This document shows, one piece after another, positions 41,735-55,495 of a stretch of 64,000 nucleotides of DNA (positions are counted from its first letter, which is position 1; each line of letters starts with the position of its first letter). The position numbers and the translations under genes were made by a program. The stretch is from the NCBI GenBank assembly GCA_036253495.1, contig GCA_036253495.1_4125.1. The stretch is one strand, 5' to 3'. Source of the DNA: a phage. Below the pieces are notes generated by a model that searched no databases, was not told where the DNA came from, and was given only the letters and a program-made list of their open reading frames with translations.

Positions 41735-42883
41735 TCATTGTATAAATGACATATCAACTTCGGTATATCTTGTAGTGTACTGCCCAGAACTTCCACCCAT
41801 TACTAGATTGGAAAAACCAGTATAAAATAACTTACCTTCATCTGTGAGAATCAAACTACCGATGTTATTCAGTACTAAACTGTAAGAACTATTAAAATTA
41901 GCATAGGACTGGGTATAATAGAACTGATTTGTAAGATTACCAACACCCAATTGTCCACCAGTGTTAACCCCAGTTGCAAATATCGTAGTACCAAATCTGC
42001 GAATATGTGAGGCCATATTGCCGACGCAACAATGTACATTCTGAACATCCGAATTCAATAAAGTTGGTGTTGTGTATTGCTTAAGTGTTGTGCCTGTACC
42101 GAATTCATTACCATATGATACCCCATACTGTGTACCACAAGCGTACAATTTATTATCATCTTTAATAAAAAATGTACTCTGATAACTTACATCGACATCT
42201 ATAACATTAGTCTGTATTCTAACAACTCCAGTACTAGCAGTTTGATTGCCTGTCCCTAACTGATAGTAAGTGTTAATACCACAACCCCATAATGTATTAT
42301 CTTCTTTTAGGTATATGTTACCAACAGCTTTTTTTACCGATGATATGGCTTCAATCTTAACAAAGGCGTTAAATGAATTTGTATTTGTGCCATTACCAAA
42401 AGATGATCTGGTTGATGTGCTGTTTGTTCCGCAGCAATATAAAGTACCATCAGTTGTTATCAAATTCACTTTAAGATCACTGTAACTACTCATGTATTTT
42501 ATATCAGAAACATTAATACCACTGGATGTTATCCATGAAGTACAATCTGTCCACGTGTTATAATATGCACCTGAACCAGAAAACGCACTCGGACTTCCAG
42601 TTATAAACACTTTTCCAGTACCGTCTTCTTCATATAATTGACAACCACTACTGTTATTTTCCAAAAGGACTCTTTTAACATTAGTCGCACTAAGAATAAA
42701 TTTACTCGACGCTACACCAGTTCCAGTACCCTGACTGACTGCCGCTGATGCATACAAATTTTTCGTGTATGTATCATGAAAATACATAGCACTACCGCCG
42801 GAATATATTTTAAAACGTGTACTAGGATCAGGCGGGTTAGGTGCAATATTCCCATAATCTAACATTCTTACAAAAGGTAACAT
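41735..42883 (-). CDS. RCC1-like propeller paralog 5
   Basis: N-terminus MLPFVRMLDYGN; YYQLGTGNQ and GGQLGVGN repeats; closest paralog of 45279..46427. Confidence 0.7.
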   Translation of the reverse strand: MLPFVRMLDYGNIAPNPPDPSTRFKIYSGGSAMYFHDTYTKNLYASAAVSQGTGTGVASSKFILSATNVKRVLLENNSSGCQLYEEDGTGKVFITGSPSAFSGSGAYYNTWTDCTSWITSSGINVSDIKYMSSYSDLKVNLITTDGTLYCCGTNSTSTRSSFGNGTNTNSFNAFVKIEAISSVKKAVGNIYLKEDNTLWGCGINTYYQLGTGNQTASTGVVRIQTNVIDVDVSYQSTFFIKDDNKLYACGTQYGVSYGNEFGTGTTLKQYTTPTLLNSDVQNVHCCVGNMASHIRRFGTTIFATGVNTGGQLGVGNLTNQFYYTQSYANFNSSYSLVLNNIGSLILTDEGKLFYTGFSNLVMGGSSGQYTTRYTEVDMSFIQ

Positions 42884-42954
42884 AATTCCTCCTTTATTCA
42901 TTATACTATATTTAATACAAAAAAGAAAAGCCAGTATCAAGTACTGGCATTATG
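42884..42954 (-). promoter_or_regulatory. conserved inter-paralog module
   Basis: Same block. Confidence 0.6.
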
Positions 42955-44064
42955 TTATTTTGGTAAATCAATTTTAGTAAAGACTGCAACATCCTCGCTT
43001 GCACCGGGAATGGCGTAATACGTTCCAGTACTATATACATCTCCATTTTTGGTTAATATTGAAGTCAAACCATCACTAAAAAGAACATCCCTAATCTCAC
43101 TAACTTCAACGGGTAATTGTAAATTTGTAGCACTATATATAGCACCAGTTTGAGAATTGTTTAATCCCAAACCACGGTTCGCCCCAACACCCTTCTGATA
43201 TGTACTGGTAATTACCATTTGTGTAGCAGTATTTAATGCAGGTGAATTCGTCATAAACAACGGAGAACTATTAGGAAAAGTACTTGCAGGAACTGCACGG
43301 AATGTAGTCGTGCCTGAACTAAGAAAGTTTGGAGTTTGACCACATACGAAATATGATGTACCATTATAGTAATTAAATGCATTACCACCAATGGCTGCAT
43401 CGATTACACCAGAACTACGTAATCCCCAAGTGTTAATTTGTGTTTGGTCCCCTGTACCATGCTGCCCACTGCTATTCCATCCAGAACTATATAGCTTATT
43501 ATCTAATGTAATATACATACTATCATTTGCATTAGTCATTACTTTACGCACGTTAGTAGCACATTGAGTTAATGTGTAAATCGATGATGAGCCAATACCT
43601 AAAGAACCACGATATCCATTATCTCCTGCACCATAGAGTACTGAACTAGTGCTAAGTACAAATATTAAACCATTTGTACATACAATATTAGCAATTTCAC
43701 TCACTGGTATAGCATTGGTAAACCAATTAGTCCTTTCAACTAATATAGTACTGTAAGAAGTAGTTGTAGAAGATGAGAACCAGTACGTTTCACCCGATGT
43801 CCATATCGTATTATCATTTTTAATAATAACAAGTGTACGACCACCCACGAAAAAATTAGAAACATCTGAACTTACTAATATCCATGAAGATACCGTGTTG
43901 TTATTACCATTTCCAGATTCACCACCTTGATTTCTACCTATGTAATATAAATCATGTGAATCAGTCAATAAGAATTGACCCTGTGTAGAAGCACCAACTT
44001 TAATTATATTTTTAGGACCGGGTGTAATATTTCCATAATCAAACATTCTAACAAAAGGTAACAT
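42955..44064 (-). CDS. RCC1-like propeller paralog 6
   Basis: N-terminus MLPFVRMFDYGN; GWNSSGQHGTGDQ repeat; coupled to upstream gene with only an RBS between. Confidence 0.7.
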   Translation of the reverse strand: MLPFVRMFDYGNITPGPKNIIKVGASTQGQFLLTDSHDLYYIGRNQGGESGNGNNNTVSSWILVSSDVSNFFVGGRTLVIIKNDNTIWTSGETYWFSSSTTTSYSTILVERTNWFTNAIPVSEIANIVCTNGLIFVLSTSSVLYGAGDNGYRGSLGIGSSSIYTLTQCATNVRKVMTNANDSMYITLDNKLYSSGWNSSGQHGTGDQTQINTWGLRSSGVIDAAIGGNAFNYYNGTSYFVCGQTPNFLSSGTTTFRAVPASTFPNSSPLFMTNSPALNTATQMVITSTYQKGVGANRGLGLNNSQTGAIYSATNLQLPVEVSEIRDVLFSDGLTSILTKNGDVYSTGTYYAIPGASEDVAVFTKIDLPK

Positions 44065-44074
44065 ATTTCCCTCC

Positions 44075-45205
44075 TTAATTTAATAATGCCCCTGGCAAAT
44101 CCACTTTGACGAATTGTGCATATGCTGAGGAATTTTGATCAAAGTTTGGTCCCAATCCATAAAATGAGCTAATGCCGTCTTCATTTGTGTATATGATATA
44201 AACGTTCTTTACATCATTTCCGCATATAAATCGAATGTCTTTCGTTTGTGTTCCCGCTGGAACATTACGAAGGTTAACAACGCCATTACTTGCATTGTTA
44301 TCAGCCGACGCAATTGGTAATTGATTTTGATCATATTGACCACGCATATTTTTTGCATCTAAACCAAACACAGTATTTGATACCGCACCAACTTTCAAAA
44401 ATGAACCAAAACTATTATTGAATGACTTTGGAAATTTACCACTATAAACACTTCTCCCATCTGATAATACCGCTGAACTGAATGCCCCGCTATTCGATAT
44501 GGCAAATTCATTGTAAGGAAGTGTACCCATTTTGGTATATACAGAATATGAATTAGTGGAAGTATTATCAATAATCTTATTACCATTATATCCAATACCA
44601 TACTGGTATCCGTCTGCATCTTGAACTATACACAAAGGACCACTTGGGGTTTGTGTCAACGAAACAACACGTTCAACTTGTATATCACCAAATGTATTTC
44701 TTCGCCATGTTCTATCTATTATAGTACTAGTATTACCCAAAGATAATGCCACACTATATAATAGATTGTTTTCAGTAAAAATGGCAACATAATATGGGTG
44801 GTTAATAACTTGCTTCATCCCAGCATCAATAACTTCCTGTGGAATATGATCAGTAACATCCAACCAATCAAGGTTAGATGATGCAATATCTGGAGTACTG
44901 AATTTGTCAAATCTAGTTGAGCCACAAACTAGCACTCTATCATCATTTGTCAAAGCCACTGTGCTAGTCTGCATATTAGAACTGAATGATTTAACATTAC
45001 TAATGTTAGACTTGTACCAACCCTTATCAGCAGCACCCACCGTGAATCCGGTTCCCATTGATCCACTTGTACTTGTACCATAAGCCCACATCTCACCACT
45101 ATATGTTAGTGCCATACAGTGGCTTCCATTTGCTTGGAAATCCTTTATACCAGTGGGAGCAACCACTGTATTCCCATAATTAAACATTCTAACAAAAGGT
45201 AACAT
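44075..45205 (-). CDS. RCC1-like propeller paralog 7 (more divergent)
   Basis: N-terminus MLPFVRMFNYGN; RBS GGAGGG. Confidence 0.65.
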   Translation of the reverse strand: MLPFVRMFNYGNTVVAPTGIKDFQANGSHCMALTYSGEMWAYGTSTSGSMGTGFTVGAADKGWYKSNISNVKSFSSNMQTSTVALTNDDRVLVCGSTRFDKFSTPDIASSNLDWLDVTDHIPQEVIDAGMKQVINHPYYVAIFTENNLLYSVALSLGNTSTIIDRTWRRNTFGDIQVERVVSLTQTPSGPLCIVQDADGYQYGIGYNGNKIIDNTSTNSYSVYTKMGTLPYNEFAISNSGAFSSAVLSDGRSVYSGKFPKSFNNSFGSFLKVGAVSNTVFGLDAKNMRGQYDQNQLPIASADNNASNGVVNLRNVPAGTQTKDIRFICGNDVKNVYIIYTNEDGISSFYGLGPNFDQNSSAYAQFVKVDLPGALLN

Positions 45206-45278
45206 ATTTCCCTCCTTTATTCATTATACTATATTTAATCAAAAATAAAAGCCAGTACTTGAGTACTGGCATATTAAT
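45206..45278 (-). promoter_or_regulatory. conserved inter-paralog module
   Basis: Same block, hairpin GCCAGTACTCAAGTACTGGC. Confidence 0.6.
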
Positions 45279-46427
45279 TCATTGTATAAATGACATATCT
45301 ACTTCTGTATAATTAAGAACGTTCTGTCCAGAAATACCACCCATTACTACTATTGCAATGCCACAATAATATAATTTTCCAGTATCCGTAAGTATAAGTG
45401 ATCCAGATGGACTGCGTACCAAATTACAAGAGGTATTAAACGAAGTATATGAAGGAGTATAGGAGTACTGATTAATATTATTACCAACACCTAATTGACC
45501 AGACGAGTTGCTTCCAGATGCATAAAGTACTTCATCACCTTTAACTATATGTGATGCCATGTTACCAACACAAGTATATAAACTATAAACACCTGCACTC
45601 AATAATGTGGGAGTTTTATATTGTATATCAGTAGAAGAGGAAGTACCACCTGTACCAAATTCGTTCCCATATTGTGCACCGAACTGTTTACCACAAGCGT
45701 ACAAATTATTATCCGATTTGATAAAAAATGTACTCTGATAACTTACATTAAAATCTATAACATCCGAAGAAATCATCGTCACCCCAGTAATAGAAGTTTG
45801 ATTACCCGTGCCCAACTGGTAGTAATAGTTAAAACCACAACCCCATAAAGTATTATCTTCTCGCAAATAAATGTTACCAACTGCCTTTTTAACCGAAGTT
45901 ATAGTATCTACTCTTTTGAATGTGTTAAAAGAATTAATGTTTGTACCATCACCAAATGATGATATGTTCGATATATTGTTAGCTCCACAACAATACAATG
46001 TACCATCGTTTGTTATCAAATTCACCTTCATATCATAAAAACTACTCATGTATTTTATATCAGAAACATTAATACCACTTGATGTTATCCACGTAGTACA
46101 GTCCGTCCACAAAGTTTTTCTATCAGTTACACCAGTGAATGCCTTCGTGTTACCAGTGATAAAAACTTTTCCAGTACCTTTCTCTTCATACAATTGACAA
46201 TCACTACTGTTATCTTCCAATAGAACTCGTTTAACATTCTCCGCACAAAGAATAAATTTACTCGATGCTACACCTGTACCAGTACCCCAATTCGTCGCAG
46301 AAGATGCATACAACTTATCAGTATAAGTATCATGAAGATACATGGAATCACTGGAATATATTTTAAAACGTCCATCATCACCAGGGGCAATATTCCCATA
46401 ATCAAACAATCTAACAAAAGGTAACAT
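45279..46427 (-). CDS. RCC1-like propeller paralog 8
   Basis: N-terminus MLPFVRLFDYGN; strong similarity to 41735..42883 along its length. Confidence 0.7.
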   Translation of the reverse strand: MLPFVRLFDYGNIAPGDDGRFKIYSSDSMYLHDTYTDKLYASSATNWGTGTGVASSKFILCAENVKRVLLEDNSSDCQLYEEKGTGKVFITGNTKAFTGVTDRKTLWTDCTTWITSSGINVSDIKYMSSFYDMKVNLITNDGTLYCCGANNISNISSFGDGTNINSFNTFKRVDTITSVKKAVGNIYLREDNTLWGCGFNYYYQLGTGNQTSITGVTMISSDVIDFNVSYQSTFFIKSDNNLYACGKQFGAQYGNEFGTGGTSSSTDIQYKTPTLLSAGVYSLYTCVGNMASHIVKGDEVLYASGSNSSGQLGVGNNINQYSYTPSYTSFNTSCNLVRSPSGSLILTDTGKLYYCGIAIVVMGGISGQNVLNYTEVDMSFIQ

Positions 46428-46529
46428 AATTCCTCCTTTATTCATTATAATATATTTAATCAAAAAAGAAAACCCTTGACACCCTTTCAGTACTGATGTA
46501 CTATATGAGAAATCTAAGGAGAATCGTAC
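46428..46529. promoter_or_regulatory. divergent promoter region between the two cassettes
   Basis: Minus side carries the TATAAT-rich motif and RBS for paralog 8; plus side has TTGACA (46475) and AAGGAG before ATG 46530. Confidence 0.5.
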
Positions 46530-46757
46530 ATGCCATATGCTCTAAAGTACTACATCAATGAACTAAATGAACTAGAGTACGCAAAGGTTCTCTCTGACCA
46601 ATCGTGGCTAATTGAACTAAAAAATCAGAAGAGCACTGGGTGTAACCTTATGCTTGGTAGTGCACTGAATACCCTTACTGTGAGCATTGTACACAATACA
46701 CTATTAGGGGATACCCGTAAACAATTTTTAAACATCTTAGTACTAGTGGCTATATGA
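46530..46757 (+). CDS. small tandem-family protein 1
   Basis: 75 aa; YY..L N-terminus and hydrophobic L/I/V C-terminal tail. Confidence 0.5.
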   Translation: MPYALKYYINELNELEYAKVLSDQSWLIELKNQKSTGCNLMLGSALNTLTVSIVHNTLLGDTRKQFLNILVLVAI

Positions 46758-46954
46758 ACATTAACCCGTACTACATCAATGCATTGCACCCTGGGCTACA
46801 AGATGCAATGAAGAACCAAAAAACAGTACTGAAAAATGCTAAACGCATACCAGGACTCCTGAACTCAAACAGGAATAACCTCATCTGGAATGCAATAGAA
46901 GGTAACGAAAGTATGCAGTACTATTTCATCTTAACACTACTATTGGAGTACTAA
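46754..46954 (+). CDS. small tandem-family protein 2
   Basis: 66 aa, ATGA overlap, ends YYFILTLLLEY. Confidence 0.55.
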   Translation: MNINPYYINALHPGLQDAMKNQKTVLKNAKRIPGLLNSNRNNLIWNAIEGNESMQYYFILTLLLEY

Positions 46955-46955
46955 T

Positions 46956-47165
46956 ATGAATACTGAACATAAAGAATTCTACACCAAATACCTCAGCAAC
47001 GAAGAACAAATGTTTCTAAGGAGTGTACCACCTGTAAGTATAGACACACCCAACACAAGGAATTGCTTTAATAATTGTATACGTAGTACTCTAGAAGCTA
47101 TTGAATGCAATAACAAAAATATGCAGTACTCAAGTTTAATCGGACTAATATACTTCTATGAATAA
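46956..47165 (+). CDS. small tandem-family protein 3
   Basis: 69 aa; HKEFYTKYL ... LIGLIYFYE. Confidence 0.55.
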   Translation: MNTEHKEFYTKYLSNEEQMFLRSVPPVSIDTPNTRNCFNNCIRSTLEAIECNNKNMQYSSLIGLIYFYE

Positions 47166-47352
47166 TCATAAAGATTTCTACTGTAGTAAACTACACAAGC
47201 AAGACCAGCTATCATTCTCTTTAGCACCACCTATGAGAAAGGATAATCTATATTACAATTACGATTTCAGGATGGCGACACGTTATGCAATAGAACATCA
47301 GTTCCCTGAAACTAAGTACCGCTCTATCCTGAACCTCATCTTTAAGTTCTAA
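47158..47352 (+). CDS. small tandem-family protein 4
   Basis: 64 aa; HKDFYCSKL ... LNLIFKF. Confidence 0.55.
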   Translation: MNNHKDFYCSKLHKQDQLSFSLAPPMRKDNLYYNYDFRMATRYAIEHQFPETKYRSILNLIFKF

Positions 47353-47363
47353 AAAGGTACTAT

Positions 47364-47576
47364 ATGAAAACTACAAACATTCATCAGTACTACATAGATA
47401 TTCTACCTAAAGATGTACAGTTCATACTTAAACAAGAATTCAGTACTTTTAAAAAACTTAAAAGAACCGCACCTTCAGCAATCATCCTGCACCACAAACA
47501 TGTCGTGCGTAATATTCTACAAGGTGCAACAGGGACCGAGTACTTTAATATAGTAAGGCTAATTACATTACAATGA
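47364..47576 (+). CDS. small tandem-family protein 5
   Basis: 70 aa; HQYYIDIL ... VRLITLQ. Confidence 0.5.
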   Translation: MKTTNIHQYYIDILPKDVQFILKQEFSTFKKLKRTAPSAIILHHKHVVRNILQGATGTEYFNIVRLITLQ

Positions 47577-47758
47577 ATCATATAAGCTACTATTACCAAA
47601 AACTATCCGACAGAGACAAGTACAGCCACAACTCCCATGTGTGGTACTACAAACGCGGCAGTATAAGAGACAAACAACATTACTTCTGTACTGCTATAAA
47701 AGAAGTACTAACAACTAAGTACACGTACAGAGCAGTACTTAAACTTATTGAAATGTAG
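47573..47758 (+). CDS. small tandem-family protein 6
   Basis: 61 aa; YYYQKL ... VLKLIEM. Confidence 0.5.
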   Translation: MNHISYYYQKLSDRDKYSHNSHVWYYKRGSIRDKQHYFCTAIKEVLTTKYTYRAVLKLIEM

Positions 47759-47766
47759 AGAATACA

Positions 47767-47946
47767 ATGCTAGAATACTACCTAAGCGTAATTTACCCAG
47801 AAGATAGATACGGCTTCAATTACTTCTCAATGAGCTATCATTGTAGTTCGCAAAGAAAACAAAGAAAATTACTCCTGAATTGTACTAAATTGGCACAGGA
47901 CGAAATGTTCACATATAATGAAGTACTGAAACTAATTTCTATCTAA
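47767..47946 (+). CDS. small tandem-family protein 7
   Basis: 59 aa hand-translated (below track cutoff); MLEYYLSVIY ... EVLKLISI. Confidence 0.5.
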   Translation: MLEYYLSVIYPEDRYGFNYFSMSYHCSSQRKQRKLLLNCTKLAQDEMFTYNEVLKLISI

Positions 47947-47954
47947 GGTACACT

Positions 47955-48134
47955 ATGCAAGAATTCTATATCTATAAACTCCAGAACAAAGATAGATACA
48001 TCTATAATCAATTCCAAAGGTACTACACAGTCGGGAACAAAAGAGATAAAAAACGATACCTGCTATCATGTACAGTAGAAGCACAAAACGAAAAGTACAC
48101 GTACAGAGAAGTACTGAAACTAATCTCTATATAA
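47955..48134 (+). CDS. small tandem-family protein 8
   Basis: 59 aa hand-translated; MQEFYIYKL ... EVLKLISI. Confidence 0.5.
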   Translation: MQEFYIYKLQNKDRYIYNQFQRYYTVGNKRDKKRYLLSCTVEAQNEKYTYREVLKLISI

Positions 48135-48144
48135 GGAATAAACT

Positions 48145-48324
48145 ATGCTAGAGTACTACACCGATAATCTCAGTACTAAGGATCGTTTCATGTACGACAC
48201 CTTCGTGAAGTACTACAACCTGGGAACAAAAAGTACTAAAACTATTAATCTCAATAGCTGCATTCATCACGTCCTGACAAAAAATAACCCATACAGAGAA
48301 ATAATCTCGCTTGTAACAGTATAA
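48145..48324 (+). CDS. small tandem-family protein 9
   Basis: 59 aa hand-translated; MLEYYTDNL ... EIISLVTV. Confidence 0.5.
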   Translation: MLEYYTDNLSTKDRFMYDTFVKYYNLGTKSTKTINLNSCIHHVLTKNNPYREIISLVTV

Positions 48325-48352
48325 GCAGTATAAGCAATTTAAGGAGACTAAA

Positions 48353-49024
48353 ATGAAACTCAATCCACAAAGCAAACGATACCTACAGCACTTCAAGTAC
48401 CTGCAATCAATCCAGGCTGAATCTACCACTAATGCATATACTTATCACCCTAATGTACTAAAGAACCTAAAGAAAAGTAAAAAAACCAGTACAAATGGAG
48501 TTAACGTATCAAAGAACCTTGAATTGTACATGAAGAAAAATAATATAGCTGTTCATTATATGAATATCTATAATACTGATTTAAAAGTATTGAGTACTAA
48601 TACGAGCATGAAGGTACTAAAGAACGCATCCTTCATCATCCATATGCAGTTGGATAATACCCCGTGCACTTTAATGCTATACTTCGGGAATACATACTTC
48701 TTCGGGAATTGTAACACCTCCCACGATGTCAATACAGCACAATTCCAAATGGGTGGCATATACAGTATGGGTTCAGAAGAAATACACGATAACATGCATT
48801 TCTTCCAACAGCAACGTACAGAAGAAACTAAATCAATTGTAGAATTCCTCAAAGAACTAGAACACAAAGAATTATCAGAAGAAGAACTATTCATGTACAG
48901 TACTGTAATCGATAATCCTGTACTGTACAAAAACGCGTACAATCTTACAAAACATGTACAGGAACTTATCAGTACTAATAAGAAAATTCATCACCTCATT
49001 ACATATATTACAAACTATGCATAA
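48353..49024 (+). CDS. larger protein embedded in the small-protein array
   Basis: 223 aa; N-terminus RYLQHFKYLQ resembles the family start. Confidence 0.55.
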   Translation: MKLNPQSKRYLQHFKYLQSIQAESTTNAYTYHPNVLKNLKKSKKTSTNGVNVSKNLELYMKKNNIAVHYMNIYNTDLKVLSTNTSMKVLKNASFIIHMQLDNTPCTLMLYFGNTYFFGNCNTSHDVNTAQFQMGGIYSMGSEEIHDNMHFFQQQRTEETKSIVEFLKELEHKELSEEELFMYSTVIDNPVLYKNAYNLTKHVQELISTNKKIHHLITYITNYA

Positions 49025-49199
49025 AGAATACTACGTAAGTAAACTTACAATAGATCTCCAAAAACTTATTCCCCAAAAACCTGTAGATTTCAAAGATAAA
49101 AGCCAAACTATATTCTACCGATATCAAACAGAATCTGCAATAAATGAAGATGATATCTATAACTTGTACAATGTACTAACACTTATATACAGGTACTAA
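49017..49199 (+). CDS. small tandem-family protein 10
   Basis: Start at MHKEYYVSKL (track ORF from 48954); ends LTLIYRY. Confidence 0.55.
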   Translation: MHKEYYVSKLTIDLQKLIPQKPVDFKDKSQTIFYRYQTESAINEDDIYNLYNVLTLIYRY

Positions 49200-49200
49200 T

Positions 49201-49389
49201 ATGCACAAAGAATACTACACAAAATATTTCCCAATGTACCTCATAACTAATCTATTAGATAAACCTCGCGGTATCAATGCACAAAACGATAAAAAGTACT
49301 TTACTATGTGCACTAAAGCATGTATACAAGATTATGATAGCTATCATCGAGCACTGTACCACACCCTGTACCTCGCATTCGTGTACTAA
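49201..49389 (+). CDS. small tandem-family protein 11
   Basis: MHKEYYTKYF ... CTKAC ... LYLAFVY. Confidence 0.6.
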   Translation: MHKEYYTKYFPMYLITNLLDKPRGINAQNDKKYFTMCTKACIQDYDSYHRALYHTLYLAFVY

Positions 49390-49398
49390 GGAAATAAT

Positions 49399-49584
49399 AT
49401 GCATAAAGAATACTACATAAATAAACTCCCAATGCATCTACAATACCTTGTACCAACAAAACCATTGGGTATAGAAAAAGACTACGAAAAAGACTACTTC
49501 GTTAAGTGCACTAAATCCTCGATAGATATTGACGACTATAATCGAGTACTGTATCACATCCTTTTACTAATATATAAGTACTAA
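49399..49584 (+). CDS. small tandem-family protein 12
   Basis: MHKEYYINKL ... CTKSS ... LLLIYKY. Confidence 0.6.
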   Translation: MHKEYYINKLPMHLQYLVPTKPLGIEKDYEKDYFVKCTKSSIDIDDYNRVLYHILLLIYKY

Positions 49585-49585
49585 T

Positions 49586-49774
49586 ATGAACGACTATAAA
49601 GAATACTACCAAGATAAACTCCCAATGCATCTCCAACACCTTGTGCCAACAAAACCATTGGGCATAAAAGATCATGCAAAAATAATGTTCCAACAATGTA
49701 CTAAGTACACCCTAATATACGATGACAATCCATATATGCTGTACTACATAACAATGCTAATATTCAGGTACTAA
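49586..49774 (+). CDS. small tandem-family protein 13
   Basis: MNDYKEYYQDKL ... CTKYT ... TMLIFRY. Confidence 0.6.
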   Translation: MNDYKEYYQDKLPMHLQHLVPTKPLGIKDHAKIMFQQCTKYTLIYDDNPYMLYYITMLIFRY

Positions 49775-49776
49775 TC

Positions 49777-49977
49777 ATGTATAAAGAATACTATATGAGT
49801 AAACTATCAAGCACCGAAAGAATCTGGTGCGAAGCCGCCGCCCCCGTTAATCCAAAAAGTGCATACGCAAAAATGGGCTTTAGGAAAGCTACAACGAACT
49901 CAATTGAAGCTCTAGAACAAGATGACACTAAAGCACTATACTCTAACCTAATGTTGCTAGTATATATCTATGGATAA
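49777..49977 (+). CDS. small tandem-family protein 14
   Basis: MYKEYYMSKL ... LMLLVYIYG. Confidence 0.55.
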   Translation: MYKEYYMSKLSSTERIWCEAAAPVNPKSAYAKMGFRKATTNSIEALEQDDTKALYSNLMLLVYIYG

Positions 49978-50161
49978 TTATAAAGAATACTATAAACAAT
50001 TTGTTAAAGAGAACTACAAAGATGCCGTCCCCGTAATCCCTTTAAATTCCCATGACCCAAGTTCTATATTCTTGTTTAAGGACGCAATACGTACAGTACT
50101 CAATACTAAAGATGAACAGGTGCAGTACGTATTCTTACTATTACTTATATACAGACACTAA
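49970..50161 (+). CDS. small tandem-family protein 15
   Basis: MDNYKEYYKQF ... LLLLIYRH. Confidence 0.55.
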   Translation: MDNYKEYYKQFVKENYKDAVPVIPLNSHDPSSIFLFKDAIRTVLNTKDEQVQYVFLLLLIYRH

Positions 50162-50162
50162 T

Positions 50163-50360
50163 ATGAATGACCATAAAGAATTCTATATAAGTAAACTCAA
50201 AGAGAATGAACAAGTATGGATTAACGCTCTAATCCCTCTACCAATGACTCGATATGAATTTAATAAATGTACTAATATAGCAATAGACCCTTCTCCTGTT
50301 CTAGAGAATGTACAGTACAATCAGTACTACTATATCTTAATGCTTATATATAGGAAGTAA
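50163..50360 (+). CDS. small tandem-family protein 16
   Basis: Start at MNDHKEFYISKL (track ORF from 50052); ends LMLIYRK. Confidence 0.55.
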   Translation: MNDHKEFYISKLKENEQVWINALIPLPMTRYEFNKCTNIAIDPSPVLENVQYNQYYYILMLIYRK

Positions 50361-50990
50361 TTAAACACATATAGCTAGGGGAAGCTCCGTAGTGCAAGCA
50401 TTATACAGGCTTTAACATATGTTGCATATGTTAAAATTCAGCCTGGACAAATGCGATCACTAGGATTCTCCCCAGGCTAAACCCCGTAATCATAAGTAAT
50501 CATATATAAACATTTAAGTAATCATTTATAATCATTGTAGTGAACAGTATTGAGTACTAGAGTGCAGGAATGATTCAGAATGATTCAGTACTGATATCCC
50601 ACTAAGTAGGCAAATGAAGTCGCCCAAAATTTACATAATTTTACAGTACTGAACAATTGCAAAACAAATCATTTCCAATCAAAAGTAATCACGGAATGAC
50701 CAGTACTGAAAACTCCCAATCACCTATTCAAAAAAGTTCAATTTACCCTTTGTCAAAAATCCCGAATACCCATTGGGGAAAATTCCGAATACCCCTTGAG
50801 GCTCCAGCAAAAAGTTGGTTAGTACTCCATCGTAAATCTGGATCGTAAAAATTTTGGAGTACCTATGAAATAAAAGTTGGATCTTCGAAAGTTGAAATTT
50901 ACATTGGGACATATAGGATTAGTGGGATATAATGAGTTTTGAAGAGATACAGAGTATACGATTTCAGTACTGAATAATGGAAGAAATCTA

Positions 50991-51018
50991 TTGACATTAT
51001 GATTCAGTACTGTATAAT
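50991..51018 (+). promoter_or_regulatory. orphan sigma70-like promoter in the ORF-free region
   Basis: TTGACA, 16 bp spacer, extended -10 TGTATAAT; no ORF follows; T-run near 51131-51141. Confidence 0.45.
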
Positions 51019-51150
51019 GTTCTACATAGAGTGATGAATTGCCGCAAACAATTCAGAGCCTTAGCCCTCCTGTCGTGAGACAGTACAGAAGAGATTGAAT
51101 CCTCCTATGCAGTGGTTCATCTTTGACAACCTCTTTTTTCGTAATATAAA

Positions 51151-51218
51151 CAGTACTGTTATTAACAGAATGGTAGCAGTACTGTTATTAACAGAATGGT
51201 AGCAGTACTGATATTAAT
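51151..51218. repeat. 26-bp tandem direct repeat, about 2.5 copies
   Basis: CAGTACTGTTATTAACAGAATGGTAG twice, then a partial third copy. Confidence 0.8.
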
Positions 51219-51454
51219 CTAATATAATGTTACCATGCAATGTGGTGAATTTCCCTTAACAGTATTCAGTACTACATGATAGTCTTCATCCTCCTAGGGT
51301 AACATAGTGAGGGCTATGATGGCAGTACTGAATACTCCCTTCTTAAAGATAGATCTATGGTATAGTACTGACGGATTTTGGGCGTAGTAACCCTGGGTGG
51401 ATTTTGGACGTAGAGATGCCTAGCCCTCCAGAAGTCTGGAAGTAAAGATGGCTA

Positions 51455-51570
51455 TCCCTCTAGACGGCTGGATGGCTGGATGGCTAGATTTCTAGATGGC
51501 TGTACTGCTAGACGTTTGGACGGCTAAACGGCTAGATGGTTAAACGTCTGGATGTATAGACGGTTAAATC
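51455..51570. repeat. iteron-like array of short degenerate direct repeats
   Basis: GGCTGGAT / GGCTAGAT / GACGGCTAAAC / AGACGGTTAAA units repeated about ten times, followed by an AT-rich T-run. Confidence 0.7.
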
Positions 51571-51731
51571 AAAATTTTTATTTTGTTTTTTCCAATAGTT
51601 CCCCTACCGCGTGGGGATGGTTTCCCCGCAGTATCTGGAGTTAGATTTTTCTGAATCTGGAAACATTATCCCAGTTTTAGCGGGGTATGTCAACCGCCTG
51701 GATGAATATTTTTAAAAAATAATCTAGTACT

Positions 51732-51806
51732 GAATTTTGGGCGTAACTATGCACCCGGTGGGCTAGAGTCTTTCTCGACTTGATGAAATAATTATAGCAG
51801 TACTGA
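51732..51806 (+). repeat. conserved noncoding element family A, copy 1
   Basis: ATTTTGGGCGTA..GCACCCGGTGGGCTAGAG..TGATG.AATAATTATAGCAGTACTG. Confidence 0.6.
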
Positions 51807-51906
51807 ATTATAAAAGCAATAGCCTAAGTGTAAAAAGTTTTAATTAATTTGCTTGCCATCCTGGGGCGTACTATGGTACTATGATTCAGTACTGAGAAAG
51901 TACTTT

Positions 51907-51933
51907 GACCCGCTAGGGTGCGGGAGTGTATCC
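51907..51933 (+). repeat. conserved noncoding element family B, copy 1
   Basis: CCCGCTAGGGTGCGGGAGTGTATCC. Confidence 0.5.
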
Positions 51934-51946
51934 TTTTTAAATTTAC

Positions 51947-52015
51947 TGAATTTTGGGCGTAGTTCCGCACCCCCTGGGGTATCCGCTTTCTCGCGTCTAT
52001 GTAGTAATTATACGC
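51947..52015 (+). repeat. conserved noncoding element family A, copy 2
   Basis: ATTTTGGGCGTAGTTCCGCACCCCCTGGGGTATCC..TCTATGTAGTAATTATACGC. Confidence 0.6.
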
Positions 52016-52264
52016 TTTTTTAGTACTGAGTCAATAGCTAAAAACAAAATAATTGAAAATAATTTAACGCGTTTAAACGGCCCGTAAAGCCCTGGATTGT
52101 TGGGAGTGGTGCAAATGTATAGCTTAGGTGTATTAATGCGTTAGAATGCGTCTGAGGCCGTTTTAAGGGTATAGTACTGAATAATTGTACTCACTGGATT
52201 GATTCAGTACTGAATGATAGTACTCCTATATAGAAAGAAAACTATTTTAAAAGTATTTGCAGAA

Positions 52265-52327
52265 AGTACTTGCATACTATGTTTAAGGGCGTATAATGTT
52301 TTACATCGAGACGGGGGAAACGCTCCT
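52265..52327 (+). promoter_or_regulatory. promoter with 5' hairpin
   Basis: AGTACTTGCAT -35, TATAAT, then GACGGGGGAAACGCTCC. Confidence 0.6.
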
Positions 52328-52353
52328 AACTCACTTTAATAGGAATTAAAACG

Positions 52354-52716
52354 ATGGCGACTCAAATCACTAAAATCATTGCTAACCTGGTTAACTTTCG
52401 CGAAGAGATGAAAGATCTTCCGGCTGAGACTGTAAAGATTCATATTTCAGCTTATCGGGAATTGATTGCAATGTTGCCGCTTAAGCGTGAACAATACGCC
52501 GCTACTGTGATGCTTGATGCGATGATCCACAAGATGATTGCCAGTGATTTAACGATGGCTTATCAGTACATGGGCGAACTATTTGCGGTGTATAGTAAAC
52601 CAGTGCCTGGGATGGAAAGTACAGAAGTATTGCACGGCTTAAACTTAAAACAAGATGCATGGGATAATATGCCTCGTTTCCTGGTATGGGCTGACAGTGG
52701 CAAGATTTACGAATAA
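52354..52716 (+). CDS. hypothetical protein
   Basis: 120 aa ORF. Confidence 0.6.
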   Translation: MATQITKIIANLVNFREEMKDLPAETVKIHISAYRELIAMLPLKREQYAATVMLDAMIHKMIASDLTMAYQYMGELFAVYSKPVPGMESTEVLHGLNLKQDAWDNMPRFLVWADSGKIYE

Positions 52717-52726
52717 GTTTTAAAAA

Positions 52727-52788
52727 GTACTTGCAAAGTAAGTTTAAAAGCGTATAATGTTTTACATCAGGTGGGGAATAGTTCCCCA
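52727..52788 (+). promoter_or_regulatory. promoter with 5' palindromic hairpin
   Basis: AGTACTTGCAA, TATAAT, GTGGGGAATAGTTCCCCAC. Confidence 0.65.
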
Positions 52789-52810
52789 CTATATAAGAGG
52801 ATTTTTAATT

Positions 52811-53050
52811 ATGGCTACTACTAAAACTTTCAACGGTCACAAAAACAAAACTCATTGGAATGTAAGCCTTTGGATTAATAACGATGAGTCATTGTATCGT
52901 CTGGCGAAAGAATTTATCGACGCTAATACTAATCGTAATGATGCGGCCCGTCATATGATGCTATTTTTAGAACAAATTGGACAAGATAAAACTCCAGACG
53001 GTTTCAAGTATAGCACTACGGCGATCCGTGCTGCAATGGTTGGAATGTAA
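52811..53050 (+). CDS. hypothetical small protein
   Basis: ATG 52811 after AGAGGA; track ORF from 52757. Confidence 0.6.
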   Translation: MATTKTFNGHKNKTHWNVSLWINNDESLYRLAKEFIDANTNRNDAARHMMLFLEQIGQDKTPDGFKYSTTAIRAAMVGM

Positions 53051-53132
53051 GAGAATAGATTTAAAGTACTATTGCACGGTGATAGTACTTTATAATAGAT
53101 TTCTTTTATACAACAACGATAGGGGTAACAGC

Positions 53133-53399
53133 ATGAATATTATATACTTTGCAACGCGTGAACAAGCTCGGCAAGCGGCAAAGGTTGACGGTGCAACGTT
53201 TAAAGATATGGGCGTACAATCTGAACGTGGTAAACGTTGGGCCGTAGTAAAGCAAAGTACAGCCCGATCAATTCAGTACTGGCTATCGGCTTTAAAGAGT
53301 CCTGATAGTGTATCGCGTCGAGTGGTAGAAATAAAGCACGACCGCAAGGGCAACCGTGTTACTGTGTACAGTACTAAAAAGATTGCAGTACTTGAATAA
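53133..53399 (+). CDS. hypothetical small protein
   Basis: ATG 53133; track ORF from 52977. Confidence 0.55.
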   Translation: MNIIYFATREQARQAAKVDGATFKDMGVQSERGKRWAVVKQSTARSIQYWLSALKSPDSVSRRVVEIKHDRKGNRVTVYSTKKIAVLE

Positions 53400-53401
53400 A
53401 A

Positions 53402-53463
53402 GTACTTGCAAAGTAATTAGATTAACGTATAATACTTTCTATCAGGTGGGGAATAGTTCCCCA
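53402..53463 (+). promoter_or_regulatory. promoter with 5' palindromic hairpin
   Basis: AGTACTTGCAA, TATAAT, GTGGGGAATAGTTCCCCAC. Confidence 0.65.
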
Positions 53464-53486
53464 CTACAAATAAGAGGATTTTTAAA

Positions 53487-53717
53487 ATGGCTATTATGTA
53501 TATGACCGAAGTTAAAACCGTAAAAGATACTACCACTAATAAAACTACTTACTTACAGCGGGTATGCGGTGTATGGCAACGTATTAGTAAAGCAAAGTAC
53601 TTTAAATTAACATCATATGCTAATCGTTCGGATTCATTCAGTACTGAAATAAAAGGTAATAAATTACACCAATACGGCACTTATTATTATTATAGCCTGG
53701 ACGCGATTGCAGTCTAA
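53487..53717 (+). CDS. hypothetical small protein
   Basis: 76 aa, AGAGGA RBS. Confidence 0.55.
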   Translation: MAIMYMTEVKTVKDTTTNKTTYLQRVCGVWQRISKAKYFKLTSYANRSDSFSTEIKGNKLHQYGTYYYYSLDAIAV

Positions 53718-53799
53718 GCAGTTTACAAATCTTTACAATTGCCGGTATTGACTTATTTTGTCAGTACTGGCATAATGTATCTATTGAAACGAACAATTT

Positions 53800-53824
53800 G
53801 GCCCACGGGGTGCGGGAGTGTATC
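53800..53824 (+). repeat. conserved noncoding element family B, copy 2
   Basis: GGCCCACGGGGTGCGGGAGTGTATC. Confidence 0.5.
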
Positions 53825-53855
53825 TATAGAAAAAGTAGTTTAGTACAGTTACAAT

Positions 53856-53905
53856 TGTGCACCCTATGGGTTAGCTGTTGTCATGGGGTATATTATACCA
53901 GTACT
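53856..53905 (+). repeat. conserved noncoding element family A-like, copy 3
   Basis: GTGCACCCTATGGGTTAGCTG..ATTATACCAGTACT. Confidence 0.45.
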
Positions 53906-53964
53906 TGATAATGCTGTCAATACTTTTTTTTTACTATTCAGTACTGAAAACTATTTTTTAAAAA

Positions 53965-54037
53965 GTACTTGCATACTATGTTTAAAGGCGTATAATGTTT
54001 TACATCAGGACGGGGAACGAAATAAGTAACTCCCCGT
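53965..54037 (+). promoter_or_regulatory. promoter with long 5' hairpin / leader element
   Basis: AGTACTTGCAT, TATAAT, then ACGGGGAACGAAATAAGTAACTCCCCGT; leader resembles 57001-57050. Confidence 0.55.
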
Positions 54038-54085
54038 TAAGTAGCCCAGGAGTAAGGCACACGAAAAACTCCCCTGATAAAATAG

Positions 54086-54113
54086 TTTGACAAATGTTTT
54101 TAAAAGCGTATAA
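54086..54113 (+). promoter_or_regulatory. sigma70-like promoter
   Basis: TTGACA, 16 bp spacer, TATAAT. Confidence 0.55.
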
Positions 54114-54146
54114 TACTTACATCAACTACTGAATGAGAGTTACAAA

Positions 54147-54821
54147 ATGAAAACTATCACTACTACTACTTTCGTTATGGATTTTTCTGAATTGAATGAG
54201 GGTGGCAAAGCGAAAACTATCACTACTACTACTTATGTTATGGCTTTTTCTGAATTGACCGCAGAACAACAAACGTCAGCTATCGAACTGGTTCGGGATC
54301 GTGAGCGTTCATGCGGGGATGATTTCTTTTCTGAGTCAGTGATCGAATACTATAAAGAAACATTATTGCCGGAATATGGCATTAATGACGCAGATTTACG
54401 ATTCAGTGGTTTTTGGTCGCAGGGTGACGGTGCATCAATCAGTACTGATCACGTTGACGGTGTGAAGTTTTTACGCAAGATTAAAGCATTAACTAAGTAT
54501 CGTTCTATCCGTCACCTGCTGAATGAAGATGATTTGGCAATGAGTGTAAAGCGTTCTCACTCCCACTACTCGCATGAAAACACTGTAAGCGGGTACATTG
54601 AATCGGCTTACACTGATTTAACCGCAAAACAAGAAACGTTAGTTAATGAGCTTGAGGAACTACTCACTGAAACTATTCGTGAATTATCTCGCAAGTTGTA
54701 CCGTGATTTAGAGAATGCATATGAGGATCAATTCACTACTGAGAACATTGTAGCACTGATTGAGGGTAACGAATATCAATTCAATGTTATTGATGGCGTA
54801 GTAGAATCAATCGAATATTAA
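54147..54821 (+). CDS. hypothetical protein with N-terminal internal duplication
   Basis: 224 aa; KTITTTTFVMDFSEL repeated as KTITTTTYVMAFSEL. Confidence 0.6.
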   Translation: MKTITTTTFVMDFSELNEGGKAKTITTTTYVMAFSELTAEQQTSAIELVRDRERSCGDDFFSESVIEYYKETLLPEYGINDADLRFSGFWSQGDGASISTDHVDGVKFLRKIKALTKYRSIRHLLNEDDLAMSVKRSHSHYSHENTVSGYIESAYTDLTAKQETLVNELEELLTETIRELSRKLYRDLENAYEDQFTTENIVALIEGNEYQFNVIDGVVESIEY

Positions 54822-54838
54822 TTCAGTACTGAATCAAT

Positions 54839-54857
54839 GGCGGGAGTGGTTCCCGCC
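54839..54857 (+). promoter_or_regulatory. 5' palindromic hairpin (no obvious own promoter)
   Basis: GGCGGGAGTGGTTCCCGCC just upstream of the RBS of 54878. Confidence 0.5.
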
Positions 54858-54877
54858 TATAACCAGGAGTAAGCATC

Positions 54878-55111
54878 ATGATCGAACAAATTCAAACGAC
54901 TACTAGCCGGAGCGGAACGAAAGTACATTCCATCGCTGATACTGATAAAGGTGTACCCTATTGTGCTGTACACGTAAACACTGACGGTGACTATTGGTTA
55001 ACTGTATACGGGCGTTACTCGTTTGCTTTTAGTGCACATAGTAAGATCCTGGAAGTAGTGAAGCCAACGGGTAAAAATATTACCGCTGAAATGTTTTATA
55101 AAAAGCACTAA
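54878..55111 (+). CDS. hypothetical small protein; paralog of 56247..56483
   Basis: Shared GVPYCAVHVNTDG.YW.TVYG ... PTGKNITAEMFYKK. Confidence 0.65.
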   Translation: MIEQIQTTTSRSGTKVHSIADTDKGVPYCAVHVNTDGDYWLTVYGRYSFAFSAHSKILEVVKPTGKNITAEMFYKKH

Positions 55112-55114
55112 AAA

Positions 55115-55176
55115 GTACTTGCAAAGTAATTAGATTAACGTATAATACTTTATATCGAGAGCGGGAATAGTTCCCG
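55115..55176 (+). promoter_or_regulatory. promoter with 5' palindromic hairpin
   Basis: AGTACTTGCAA, TATAAT, GCGGGAATAGTTCCCGC. Confidence 0.65.
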
Positions 55177-55478: not shown

Positions 55479-55495
55479 GTACTAAGGATTATATA

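Follow-up and report, generated by a model that had tools for sequence, protein, structure and literature searches.

A tandem array of diverged small paralogues beside the terminal repeat of Asteriusvirus jumbo phages

What would a jumbo phage do with sixteen tiny, related genes in a single operon? The question was raised by a 64,000-nucleotide stretch of phage DNA (GCA_036253495.1, contig GCA_036253495.1_4125.1; here, the window). A preliminary description of it had reported an array of about 16 small paralogous ORFs facing a cassette of propeller genes, and had proposed that the array encodes a variable binding surface. The source phage was an Asteriusvirus jumbo coliphage, with 95% identity to phage A4 and 86% to 121Q.

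Operon layout and coding status

The small ORFs were all present on the plus strand, in an operon of 17 genes (46,530–50,360) comprising 16 ORFs of 59–75 aa and one of 223 aa. The latter (p10, 48,353–49,024) separates the ninth small ORF from the tenth, so the sixteen are not strictly consecutive, as had been thought. Three members of 59 aa each, starting at 47,767, 47,955 and 48,145 and falling under the ORF cutoff of 60 aa, were recovered as described. Two listed ORFs were over-long: the family alignment and the annotation of 121Q and A4 placed the true starts at internal ATG codons at 49,017 (p11) and 50,163 (p17), and 121Q gene 257 is annotated with the same start as p11. The 16 junctions consisted of overlaps of 4–8 nt (five), gaps of 1–2 nt (five), gaps of 8–11 nt (five) and one gap of 28 nt. 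The first gene was preceded by a Shine–Dalgarno sequence, TAAGGAG (46,516–46,522, plus strand), which was invariant among seven Asteriusvirus genomes.

The 223-aa product of p10 matched PHROG 29152 (function unknown) with an E-value of 2.4e-136, and its homologues were found only in Asteriusvirus-type sequences. The protein looks unrelated to the small ones, with only a weak resemblance in its helical C-terminus (match to subfamily B, defined below, domain E 0.006). The AlphaFold2 model of p10 was unusable (pLDDT 42).

The inner boundary of a direct terminal repeat of approximately 20.7 kb lay at approximately 50,604–50,657, and the repeat continued rightward past position 64,000. In the G17 record, positions 1–20,668 are identical to 350,150–370,817, and the right end of that record maps to the same boundary in the window. 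The repeat length agreed with the direct terminal repeats of Sharanji (20,668 bp) and fEgEco12 (20,993 bp). The array ended approximately 250 bp outside the repeat, adjacent to it and not within it. Within the unique sequence, the operon is the final transcription unit, and its genes point toward the right-hand terminal repeat.

A dN/dS comparison, proposed as a check in the preliminary description, gave values of 0.1–0.5 for most orthologue pairs and of at least 1 for some. Since most values were this low, the ORFs are real genes. Compared with six relatives, the window differed most often at third codon positions (516, 421 and 850 differences at positions 1, 2 and 3). Across eight phages, every copy retained its reading frame, length and core residues. 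The second gene, p02, diverged fast, with 52–57% identity in most relatives versus approximately 86% for the DNA of the region. In subfamily A, omega was approximately 0.4 on conserved columns and approximately 1.0 on variable columns, which made up half of all columns; the latter value is partly circular because the columns were picked for their variability. Overall omega was 0.45–0.66, and the comparison did not establish clear positive selection.

Family relationships, predicted fold and distribution

The 16 small proteins fell into three subfamilies, within which BLASTP E-values reached 1e-19. The nine members of subfamily A matched PHROG 11711 (function unknown) end to end over profile positions 1–62, with E-values from 1.6e-7 to 3.5e-27. 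Two of them lie in the first part of the operon: p03 (46,956–47,165, 69 aa, E 1.2e-13) and p04 (47,158–47,352, 64 aa, E 2.5e-22), which overlap by 8 nt. The other seven form the distal end: p11 (49,017–49,199, 60 aa, E 9e-13), overlapping p10 by 8 nt, p12 (49,201–49,389, 62 aa, E 1.4e-25), p13 (49,399–49,584, 61 aa, E 3.5e-27), p14 (49,586–49,774, 62 aa, E 1.3e-23), p15 (49,777–49,977, 66 aa, E 2.6e-12), p16 (49,970–50,161, 63 aa, E 1.6e-7) and the last gene, p17 (50,163–50,360, 65 aa, E 2.4e-20). Subfamily B consisted of p06 (47,573–47,758, 61 aa) and the three 59-aa members p07 (47,767–47,946), p08 (47,955–48,134) and p09 (48,145–48,324). Subfamily C consisted of p01 (46,530–46,757, 75 aa), the most divergent member, which was 99% identical to A4_246, p02 (46,754–46,954, 66 aa), whose start overlaps the p01 stop (ATGA), and p05 (47,364–47,576, 70 aa), to which p02 was related with a BLASTP E-value of approximately 1e-6. 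All of these genes are on the plus strand.

The seven proteins of subfamilies B and C matched no PHROG directly. Comparison of subfamily alignments drawn from seven phages with hhalign gave full-length collinear matches (E = 2.7e-5 for A–B, 3.8e-6 for A–C and 6.5e-5 for B–C), and this profile–profile comparison ties B and C to PHROG 11711 for the first time. The preliminary description had allowed that the resemblance might reflect only composition. The observed scores of 26–31 were reached by none of the 100 column-shuffled control alignments made for each subfamily pair (mean approximately 9, s.d. 1.7, maximum 15). Judged by these alignments, A, B and C form one superfamily by positional, not compositional, similarity. 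Copies were often <25% identical to one another. The motif set attributed to all sixteen proteins (HKEYY..KL, F..CT and L.LIYRY) was complete in the nine members of subfamily A, whereas the four B and three C proteins retained only an N-terminal (E)YY..L and a C-terminal Y..(I/V)L.L(I/V). The array is a true paralogous family, the product of tandem duplication.

AlphaFold2 predicted a confident four-helix fold for p13 (pLDDT 91.3, pTM 0.74; helices at residues 2–7, 12–15, 28–43 and 47–60), and the BFVD model of a different family member, obtained independently, reproduced it (TM 0.82). Fold comparison of the subfamily A model yielded no match beyond its own family. In the model, the core is the N-terminal (K)E(Y/F)Y..L motif together with the C-terminal Y..(I/L)L.L(I/V)(Y/F) helix. 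Conserved columns corresponded to the hydrophobic faces of the predicted helices, and variable columns to a loop (residues 12–33) and the exposed helix faces. The proposed variable surface thus took the form of a conserved scaffold bearing a variable loop and variable exposed faces. The proteins were of soluble type, approximately 60 aa long and rich in Tyr, Leu and Lys. They had no transmembrane segment or signal peptide (maximum 19-residue Kyte–Doolittle hydropathy ≤1.2); the hydrophobic C-terminal stretch spanned only about 12 residues and was modelled as a packed helix. Their pI ranged from 5.3 to 10.0, with a net charge near zero for most, so the surfaces of the members differ and lack a uniform basic character.

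An exhaustive search of 1.84 billion representative proteins returned only 28 genuine related clusters, and those members traceable to phage records were all of Asteriusvirus type. With one member per subfamily as the query, tblastn matched only 21–36 Escherichia and Salmonella phage records, all of 310–384 kb, and every record inspected was classed as Asteriusvirus. By these searches, which followed a suggestion to look for related small proteins in other phages, the superfamily is genus-restricted and absent from other known viruses and organisms. Copy number varied between 16 and 23 across eight phages within a fixed block order: C C A A [C], then three to six B copies, then p10 as a conserved insert, then seven to 13 A copies. 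Inside this order the family has expanded, and continues to turn over, through tandem duplication and loss.

Alternatively, the array may be largely dispensable ballast, arising from frequent tandem duplication in genomes whose capsid size permits it, with most copies drifting and having little function. Asteriusvirus genomes contain several other unrelated tandem families, so that a duplication-prone genome could explain the copy number without an arms race. Tandem arrays in 121Q were noted by Hua et al. 2017 (PMC5646251), and both the omega of approximately 1 on half of the subfamily A columns and the orthologue pairs at or above 1 would suit drift. However, the retention of frames, lengths and core residues in every copy of eight phages, the low omega of most pairs, the concentration of differences at third codon positions, and the conservation of block order and promoter all speak against this reading. 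We consider ballast an unlikely explanation.

Promoters, the RCC1 cassette and candidate functions

A sigma-70-type promoter with predicted activity was located at 46,476–46,504 (plus strand), consisting of TTGACA, a 17-nt spacer holding CAGTACTG, and TACTAT. Its −35 and −10 elements were invariant in seven Asteriusvirus genomes, and the divergent phage JNE01 retained it as TTGACA-17-TACAAT. It belongs to the same class as the terminal-repeat promoters (TTGACA/TTGCAA-N8-CAGTACTG-TATAAT), at least 20 of which, in the adjacent repeat, have its architecture. The repeat was enriched in sigma-70-like sites, with 77 found where 48 ± 7 were expected; seven of the sites matched perfectly (12/12). The array is probably expressed early in infection, because its promoter consensus matches this class, unlike the T4-late-like motifs of structural genes. 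Such ATAAATA motifs lie upstream of the capsid, baseplate and tail-fibre genes of 121Q, which encodes a late sigma factor. Full-text literature searches yielded neither a transcriptome nor a functional study for an Asteriusvirus.

The array had been described as divergent from the propeller cassette out of one shared intergenic region. It does face the RCC1 cassette across approximately 100 bp (46,428–46,529), but this spacer holds two promoters of different classes and not one common control region. The promoter-like motif and ribosome-binding site of the first RCC1 gene (GATTAAATATATTATAATGAATAAAGGAGGAATT-ATG; 46,428–46,463, minus strand) lacked a −35 element. The motif recurred behind a terminator hairpin before seven of the nine ORFs of the RCC1 cassette, and resembled both the T4-late-like motifs and the TATAAATA motifs upstream of 121Q capsid and baseplate genes.

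The small proteins might be partners of the RCC1 virion propellers, acting as chaperones, assembly factors or intracellular inhibitors. In every one of the eight Asteriusvirus genomes compared, the two cassettes lay side by side in divergent orientation, and both are tandem-expanded and hypervariable (PMC13070987). Against this, the promoter classes differ, and each RCC1 gene has its own terminator and promoter. RCC1 and small-protein copy numbers were unpaired (about 9/16, 12/16, 11/23 and 16/22). The genes of phage fibre chaperones usually follow the client gene downstream and share its orientation. Phages of Yersinia, Cronobacter, Xanthomonas, Erwinia, Salmonella (Munch-type), Clostridioides and Brevibacillus carried RCC1 genes but no member of the small family; in Yersinia phage fHe-Yen9-04 five RCC1 genes formed a tandem cassette. 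The virion proteome of phAPEC6 comprised 62 proteins, among them eight flanking RCC1 paralogues but no array protein, and even a 4.7-kDa protein was present, although mass spectrometry easily overlooks small proteins (PMC7247149). Partnership with the propellers is therefore quite unlikely, and the earlier suggestion of cognate chaperones or assembly factors is disfavoured by promoter classes, virion proteome, co-occurrence and copy numbers alike. Nor did the array fit the general pattern of fibre or virion assembly chaperones, being divergent in orientation from its would-be RCC1 clients and different from them in promoter class.

The likeliest reading, which we hold tentatively, is that the array is an early, non-structural multigene family for host takeover or counter-defence that putatively binds host or defence proteins. 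Host RNA polymerase would transcribe the operon early from the conserved sigma-70-type promoter, alongside the terminal-repeat genes, and the products would remain in the cell and not enter virions. Each small protein may act as a stoichiometric protein-binding module that blocks or redirects one host protein, which could be a housekeeping target or a defence protein that varies between strains, and a repertoire of paralogues would extend coverage to more targets or host strains. The early-type promoter, the absence from virions, the copy-number flux and the fast divergence would all be consistent with the inhibitor, anti-defence or decoy option raised in the preliminary description. Sequence and fold comparisons showed no likeness of the array proteins to characterised inhibitors or anti-defence proteins.

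The same early-type promoter, diversified surfaces and copy-number flux would also suit early factors for superinfection exclusion or inter-phage competition, directed against related jumbo phages, with a diversity of paralogues that follows the variants of the competitors' proteins. Virion proteins are the products of the most variable genes nearby and would be possible targets on incoming particles. The array proteins nevertheless have no membrane anchor or signal peptide, features of many (not all) exclusion proteins, and we regard this role as very unlikely.

A role as nucleic-acid- or RNA-polymerase-binding regulators of the phage programme, for example recognising CAGTACTG, appears highly improbable. 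This palindrome occurred 58 times in the window versus approximately one expected, in promoters and terminators and within promoter spacers that include the array's own, and several members are basic (pI 9–10). Yet the pI of others is as low as 5.3 and most net charges are near zero, neither the sequences nor the p13 model showed a helix-turn-helix, zinc-ribbon or other DNA-binding signature, and one invariant palindrome needs no 16–23 diverged copies. Of the toxin family also suggested earlier there was no sign: partner genes were lacking, and comparison with the curated models of PADLOC, Pfam and NCBIfam gave no match.

Comparison with known systems

Lineage-specific tandem arrays of tiny genes are already familiar in large and jumbo phages. 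Hua et al. 2017 noted '>30 very similar genes' in tandem in 121Q (PMC5646251), and phage G carries a zinc-ribbon expansion of approximately 35 copies (PMC7824862). The present array shares with both the lineage-specific tandem expansion of tiny jumbo-phage genes. It differs in being far more diverged and in not being a zinc ribbon. A family with an 'LGTNYQE' motif, located across the terminal repeat, probably corresponds to the large array of 121Q and G17; by hhalign this motif family was unrelated to the small-protein family (E ≥0.08).

Outside phages, the MGF110, MGF360 and MGF505 families of African swine fever virus (ASFV) and the terminal host-range families of poxviruses ('genomic accordions') modulate host range and host defence. 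Like the array, they are paralogues near genome ends that gain and lose copies between isolates and diverge fast. The viruses, hosts and folds are different, and the array is not known to confer a host-range phenotype.

For a host-takeover or counter-defence family, the closest parallel in logic may be the host-takeover genes of SPO1, which are small, early, strongly promoted and located in the terminal region (PMC6873191). The SPO1 products are known to appear early and to bind host machinery or shut it off. The SPO1 genes are mostly mutually unrelated and lie inside the terminal redundancy, whereas in the array all but one of the 17 genes are paralogues with a single orphan predicted fold and sit just beyond the repeat; the two sets of proteins resemble each other in neither sequence nor fold. 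Both systems are clusters of small genes towards a genome end in large virulent myoviruses that have long terminal repeats, and both are organised in operons behind host-type promoters, in the array a consensus match of TTGACA-17-TACTAT followed by TAAGGAG. [quoted passage not shown]

A tandem family of small genes in an Asteriusvirus genome

In megablast searches, 37 phage records matched positions 46,000–51,000, all of them from Escherichia or Salmonella jumbo phages. The closest matches were phage A4 (94.8% identity) and phage 121Q (86%, genes 249–265), whose records are classed in the genus Asteriusvirus and list every matched gene as 'hypothetical protein'. Based on this classification, the window is a piece of an Asteriusvirus genome of ~350 kb. 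The array (46,530–50,360, + strand) consisted of 17 adjoining open reading frames (ORFs; p01–p17), 16 of which encoded proteins of 59–75 aa. The preliminary description had these sixteen as consecutive; their number and size held, but a 223-aa ORF (p10; 48,353–49,024, +) lies between the ninth and the tenth. Two ORFs were over-long in the mechanical list, and their starts were reset to 49,017 and 50,163 on the basis of the family alignment and the 121Q and A4 annotation. The 16 junctions comprised five overlaps of 4–8 nt, five gaps of 1–2 nt, five gaps of 8–11 nt and one gap of 28 nt; the array is one tightly packed operon.

All-against-all BLASTP divided the 16 small proteins into subfamily A (p03, p04 and p11–p17), subfamily B (p06–p09) and subfamily C (p02, p05 and, weakly, p01). 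Subfamily A corresponded to PHROG 11711 (function not annotated; E values 1.6e-7 to 3.5e-27), and subfamilies B and C had no PHROG match. None of the 16 had a meaningful Pfam match, and NCBIfam and PADLOC scans and a sequence-profile search of the PDB gave no match. Profile–profile comparison of the window sequences alone was suggestive (A–B 7e-4, A–C 3.6e-5, B–C not significant). The alignments were rebuilt with the arrays of 121Q, A4, BF17, SP27, ELP-22 and G17, giving 63, 19 and 16 distinct sequences for A, B and C, respectively, and all three pairs then aligned collinearly over their full length (A–B, E = 2.7e-5; A–C, E = 3.8e-6; B–C, E = 6.5e-5). The between-subfamily scores were 26–31, compared with a mean of ~9 (sd 1.7, maximum 15) for column-shuffled controls of the same composition (100 per pair). 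Since the real scores lie well above the control maximum, the similarity is not merely compositional, and the small ORFs form one paralogous family, as had been proposed from the sequence. The C-terminus of p10 had only a marginal resemblance to subfamily B (domain E = 0.006), and p10 was not counted as a member. Its homologues were all Asteriusvirus-type and its AlphaFold2 model had a pLDDT of 42, so it was also set aside as a functional clue.

The array genes show coding constraint. Between the window and six relatives, 516, 421 and 850 differences fell on codon positions 1, 2 and 3, respectively, conserved positions were present in the alignments, and dN/dS was 0.1–0.5 in most orthologue pairs. 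Values of 1 or more occurred in a few pairs with small counts (p13, p16 and p17 against A4). These data also bear on the rival reading of the array as near-neutral ballast, which is compatible with the freely varying columns of subfamily A described below and has the constraint on most pairs against it.

In several subfamily-A genes, the end of the coding sequence serves twice: the codons for the conserved C-terminal tail (...TAT/TAC-AGG/AAG-TAC-TAA-T-ATG) also make up the junction with the next gene and its partial Shine-Dalgarno sequence, for example at 49,186–49,203 and 49,761–49,779. As these codons supply both ribosome-binding and coupling context for the following gene, the duplication unit is intertwined with translational signals, and some of the apparent protein conservation in this tail may be at the nucleotide level. 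The coding strand of the array (46,000–50,000) had a negative GC skew (−0.19) and an AT skew of +0.16 to +0.24, whereas GC skew was positive in the other + strand genes of the window. The skew of the array likely results from a composition rich in Tyr, Lys, Asn, Leu and His and poor in Gly, Ala and Val.

Distribution, divergence and predicted fold

Exhaustive searching of 1.84 billion representative proteins by HMMER, with the profile of subfamily A as query, yielded 29 clusters at 50% identity. Of these, 28 were genuine members of ~60 aa, one of them truncated to 41 aa; the 29th, P0052 (531 aa), was a spurious repeat protein. A word-indexed homologue search had recovered close orthologues only; the exhaustive search added diverged members, yet no named family. 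With members of A, B and C as tblastn queries, 21–36 phage records were matched, exclusively from Escherichia or Salmonella phages and all 310–384 kb in size, and all those inspected were classed as Asteriusvirus. The order of the blocks was fixed (C C A A (C), B ×3–6, p10, A ×7–13), while the number of small genes varied: 16 in the window and 121Q, 17 in A4 and G17, 19 in SP27, 22 in BF17 and 23 in ELP-22. JNE01 had 15 HMM-scored copies, and the position of p01 was occupied by a C-like ORF of 81 aa without an HMM score. Growth and shrinkage through tandem duplication beside the genome terminus is the best-supported explanation. The array diverges fast: p02 shared 52–57% identity with most relatives, compared with ~86% for the surrounding DNA. 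Crude pairwise Nei-Gojobori estimates, partitioned by column, gave an omega of ~0.4 for conserved and ~1.0 for variable columns of subfamily A, and lower values in B and C. There was no convincing signal of positive selection in these estimates beyond the omega of ~1 on variable columns, which is not proof of it, since the partition is partly circular.

An AlphaFold2 model of p13, computed from a 20-sequence family alignment, had a pLDDT of 91 and a pTM of 0.74. It predicts short N-terminal helices (residues 2–7 and 12–15), a long loop (16–27) and two longer helices (28–43 and 47–60). A separate BFVD model of another family member agreed with it (TM 0.82). Among the 63 subfamily-A sequences, low-entropy columns were found in the N-terminal half (K3, E4, Y/F5, Y6, L10, Q15, P22), along helix 3 (F34, C37, T/I38, I/L42) and in the C-terminal part (Y/L51, Y52, L55, L57, I58, Y/F59, Y61), and the remaining columns varied freely. 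In helices 3 and 4 they recurred every 3–4 residues, the pattern expected for a buried face. The lone Cys was present in 42 of the 63 sequences and replaced by Ala in nine; this semi-conserved residue looks like a small core residue rather than a metal or catalytic site. Tyrosine made up 10.8% of the residues of the array proteins.

Promoter classes and the terminal repeat

A promoter-like sequence, TTGACA-17-TACTAT, was found 5' of p01, followed by TAAGGAG. Its hexamers were invariant in seven genomes, in which the ~100-bp spacer between the array and the RCC1 genes was more conserved than the genes themselves; the divergent JNE01 kept the promoter as TTGACA-17-TACAAT. On the other side of the spacer, a hairpin terminator and the motif GATTAAATATA(g)TATAATGAATAAAGGAGG preceded seven of the nine ORFs of the RCC1 cassette. 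The motif lacks a −35 element and is similar to the ATAAATA/TATAAATA motifs that 121Q has 5' of its genes for the major capsid protein, baseplate and tail fibres; a 'sigma factor for late transcription' is also encoded by this phage. Most RCC1 paralogues are independent units, each with a terminator hairpin, an GATTAAATATAgTATAATG motif and AGGAGG, and the terminator stems are built on an AGTACT core. The two sets of genes are divergent and share one intergenic region, as the preliminary description stated, but in it two promoters lie back to back, each of its own class. From these motifs, we infer that the array is transcribed early by the host RNA polymerase and the RCC1 genes late; the Asteriusvirus literature searched reported no transcriptome.

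The direct terminal repeat is present twice in the G17 record, with positions 1–20,668 identical to 350,150–370,817. Terminal repeats of about 20 kb in G17 (PMC6563267), 20,668 bp in Sharanji (PMC11895373) and 20,993 bp in fEgEco12, the last confirmed by restriction digests (PMC13070987), have been reported. The right end of G17 mapped the repeat boundary to ~50,604–50,657, with which H62 was consistent. The repeat begins roughly 250 bp past the last stop codon of the array, and the array, outside the repeat, is the final operon of the unique region, transcribed toward the right-hand repeat. From the boundary to position 64,000, the window consists of terminal repeat with many tiny genes, each with its own promoter and terminator. 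Sigma-70-like sites were enriched there (77, compared with 48 ± 7 expected), seven being perfect 12/12 matches, and the promoters of the repeat have the common architecture TTGACA/TTGCAA-N8-CAGTACTG-TATAAT. The 8-bp palindrome CAGTACTG also lies in the spacer of the array promoter. It occurred 58 times in the window (1.0 ± 1.0 expected), lies in the spacer of the sigma-70-like promoters directly 5' of the −10 element, and was densest at 50,586–52,212, with 12 copies in the ORF-free stretch at the repeat boundary. It may be a regulator site or a packaging-related site.

This stretch (50,361–52,350) spans the boundary, comprises ~2 kb lacking a convincing ORF and is unannotated in 121Q, A4 and G17. 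It carries strong promoter-like sites on both strands, such as a 12/12 match at 50,991 (+) and sites at 52,034, 51,834 and 51,693 (−), as well as three tandem copies of a 26-bp repeat (51,151–51,228) and a direct repeat of 69 nt (51,728 and 51,944). It is a candidate packaging/terminus region or non-coding RNA source; no Rfam family and no tRNA was found in the entire window, this stretch included. Within the repeat, positions 52,718–53,720 (~1 kb) shared ~84–85% nucleotide identity with E. coli myoviruses of 144–147 kb, and a 6-kb query (50,300–56,300) matched 201 records, some named Phapecoctavirus, Justusliebigvirus or Campylobacter phage. The similarity suggests recent horizontal exchange or a mobile gene.

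The RCC1 propellers, function and comparison with known systems

The RCC1 cassette (33,408–46,463, − strand) contained nine propeller paralogues. The virion proteome of phAPEC6 comprised 62 proteins, among them eight RCC1-like proteins (gp003, 005, 006, 007, 009, 010, 549 and 551); no array protein was among them, though a protein of 4.7 kDa was detected (PMC7247149). The phAPEC6 array lies immediately before gp549. The eight orthologous paralogues in virions indicate that RCC1 proteins are structural rather than the annotated 'DNA condensation' factors, perhaps 'hairy' appendages or host-binding decorations. Many phages without the small family also carry RCC1-like genes, among them Yersinia phage fHe-Yen9-04 (a five-gene tandem cassette) and GAP32 (a single gene). 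RCC1 and small-gene copy numbers were not paired in four genomes (about 9/16, 12/16, 11/23 and 16/22), a sample too small for statistics. Together, the virion proteome, the RCC1-only phages and the copy numbers argue against the initially suggested role of the small proteins as cognate chaperones or assembly factors for the propellers. As for the broader rival that they are RCC1 partners, some interaction is compatible with the evidence.

The best-supported reading of the array is an early multigene family confined to the genus and, judging from mass spectrometry of one relative, probably non-structural; its members would be small protein-binding modules, alike in their conserved core and diversified on their surfaces. 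Rival readings are that the small proteins, which lack transmembrane segments and range in pI from 5.3 to 10.0, are regulators binding DNA or RNA polymerase, or act in superinfection exclusion. The molecular targets of the protein-binding modules are the most conjectural part. We hypothesize, with low confidence, a diversifying 'accordion' made of a small four-helix inhibitor fold not recognised before: every paralogue would counteract its own E. coli or Salmonella target, either a defence system or a host factor that varies between strains, and the repertoire would determine the host range of Asteriusvirus jumbo phages. At present, this is an uncharacterised genus-restricted family that merits experiment and is no surprise. 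If its products are early host-binding modules, each genome would offer 16–23 natural variants on one stable 60-aa scaffold, a panel in which to look for new inhibitors acting on E. coli proteins or defence systems, and the array might explain host-range differences among therapeutic jumbo coliphages. If the accordion reading were true, each genome would hold 16–23 new anti-defence or host-inhibitor specificities.

Other tandem families were observed. In G17, positions 344,000–350,052 hold a third one, of at least 27 overlapping genes (52–87 aa) with an 'LGTNYQE' motif, adjoining the other side of the terminal repeat. Kinship between it and the array was rejected, the families being unrelated. 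It is probably the family of '>30 very similar genes' to which Hua et al. 2017 devoted one sentence on the tandem arrays of 121Q (PMC5646251). In the window, seven tandem, translationally coupled ORFs of ~106–152 aa (30,361–32,825, +), corresponding to 121Q genes 224–232, are all very hydrophobic and presumably encode multi-pass membrane proteins; they are followed at 32,825–33,376 (+) by a lipoprotein-like ORF, which has a lipobox (...TGC). Asteriusvirus genomes set several independent tandem families beside their 20-kb terminal repeats. Large eukaryotic DNA viruses carry terminal multigene families, of which this organisation is reminiscent, as is the array in its evolutionary style. In databases, the small family has so far carried no name beyond 'hypothetical protein' and PHROG 11711. 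The present analysis adds the joining of its three subfamilies, a predicted fold, the setting of the array with respect to promoters and terminal repeat, and the evidence against an RCC1 link. [quoted passage not shown] The array is a lineage-specific, probably early small-gene family of a kind known from large phages, not a new category.
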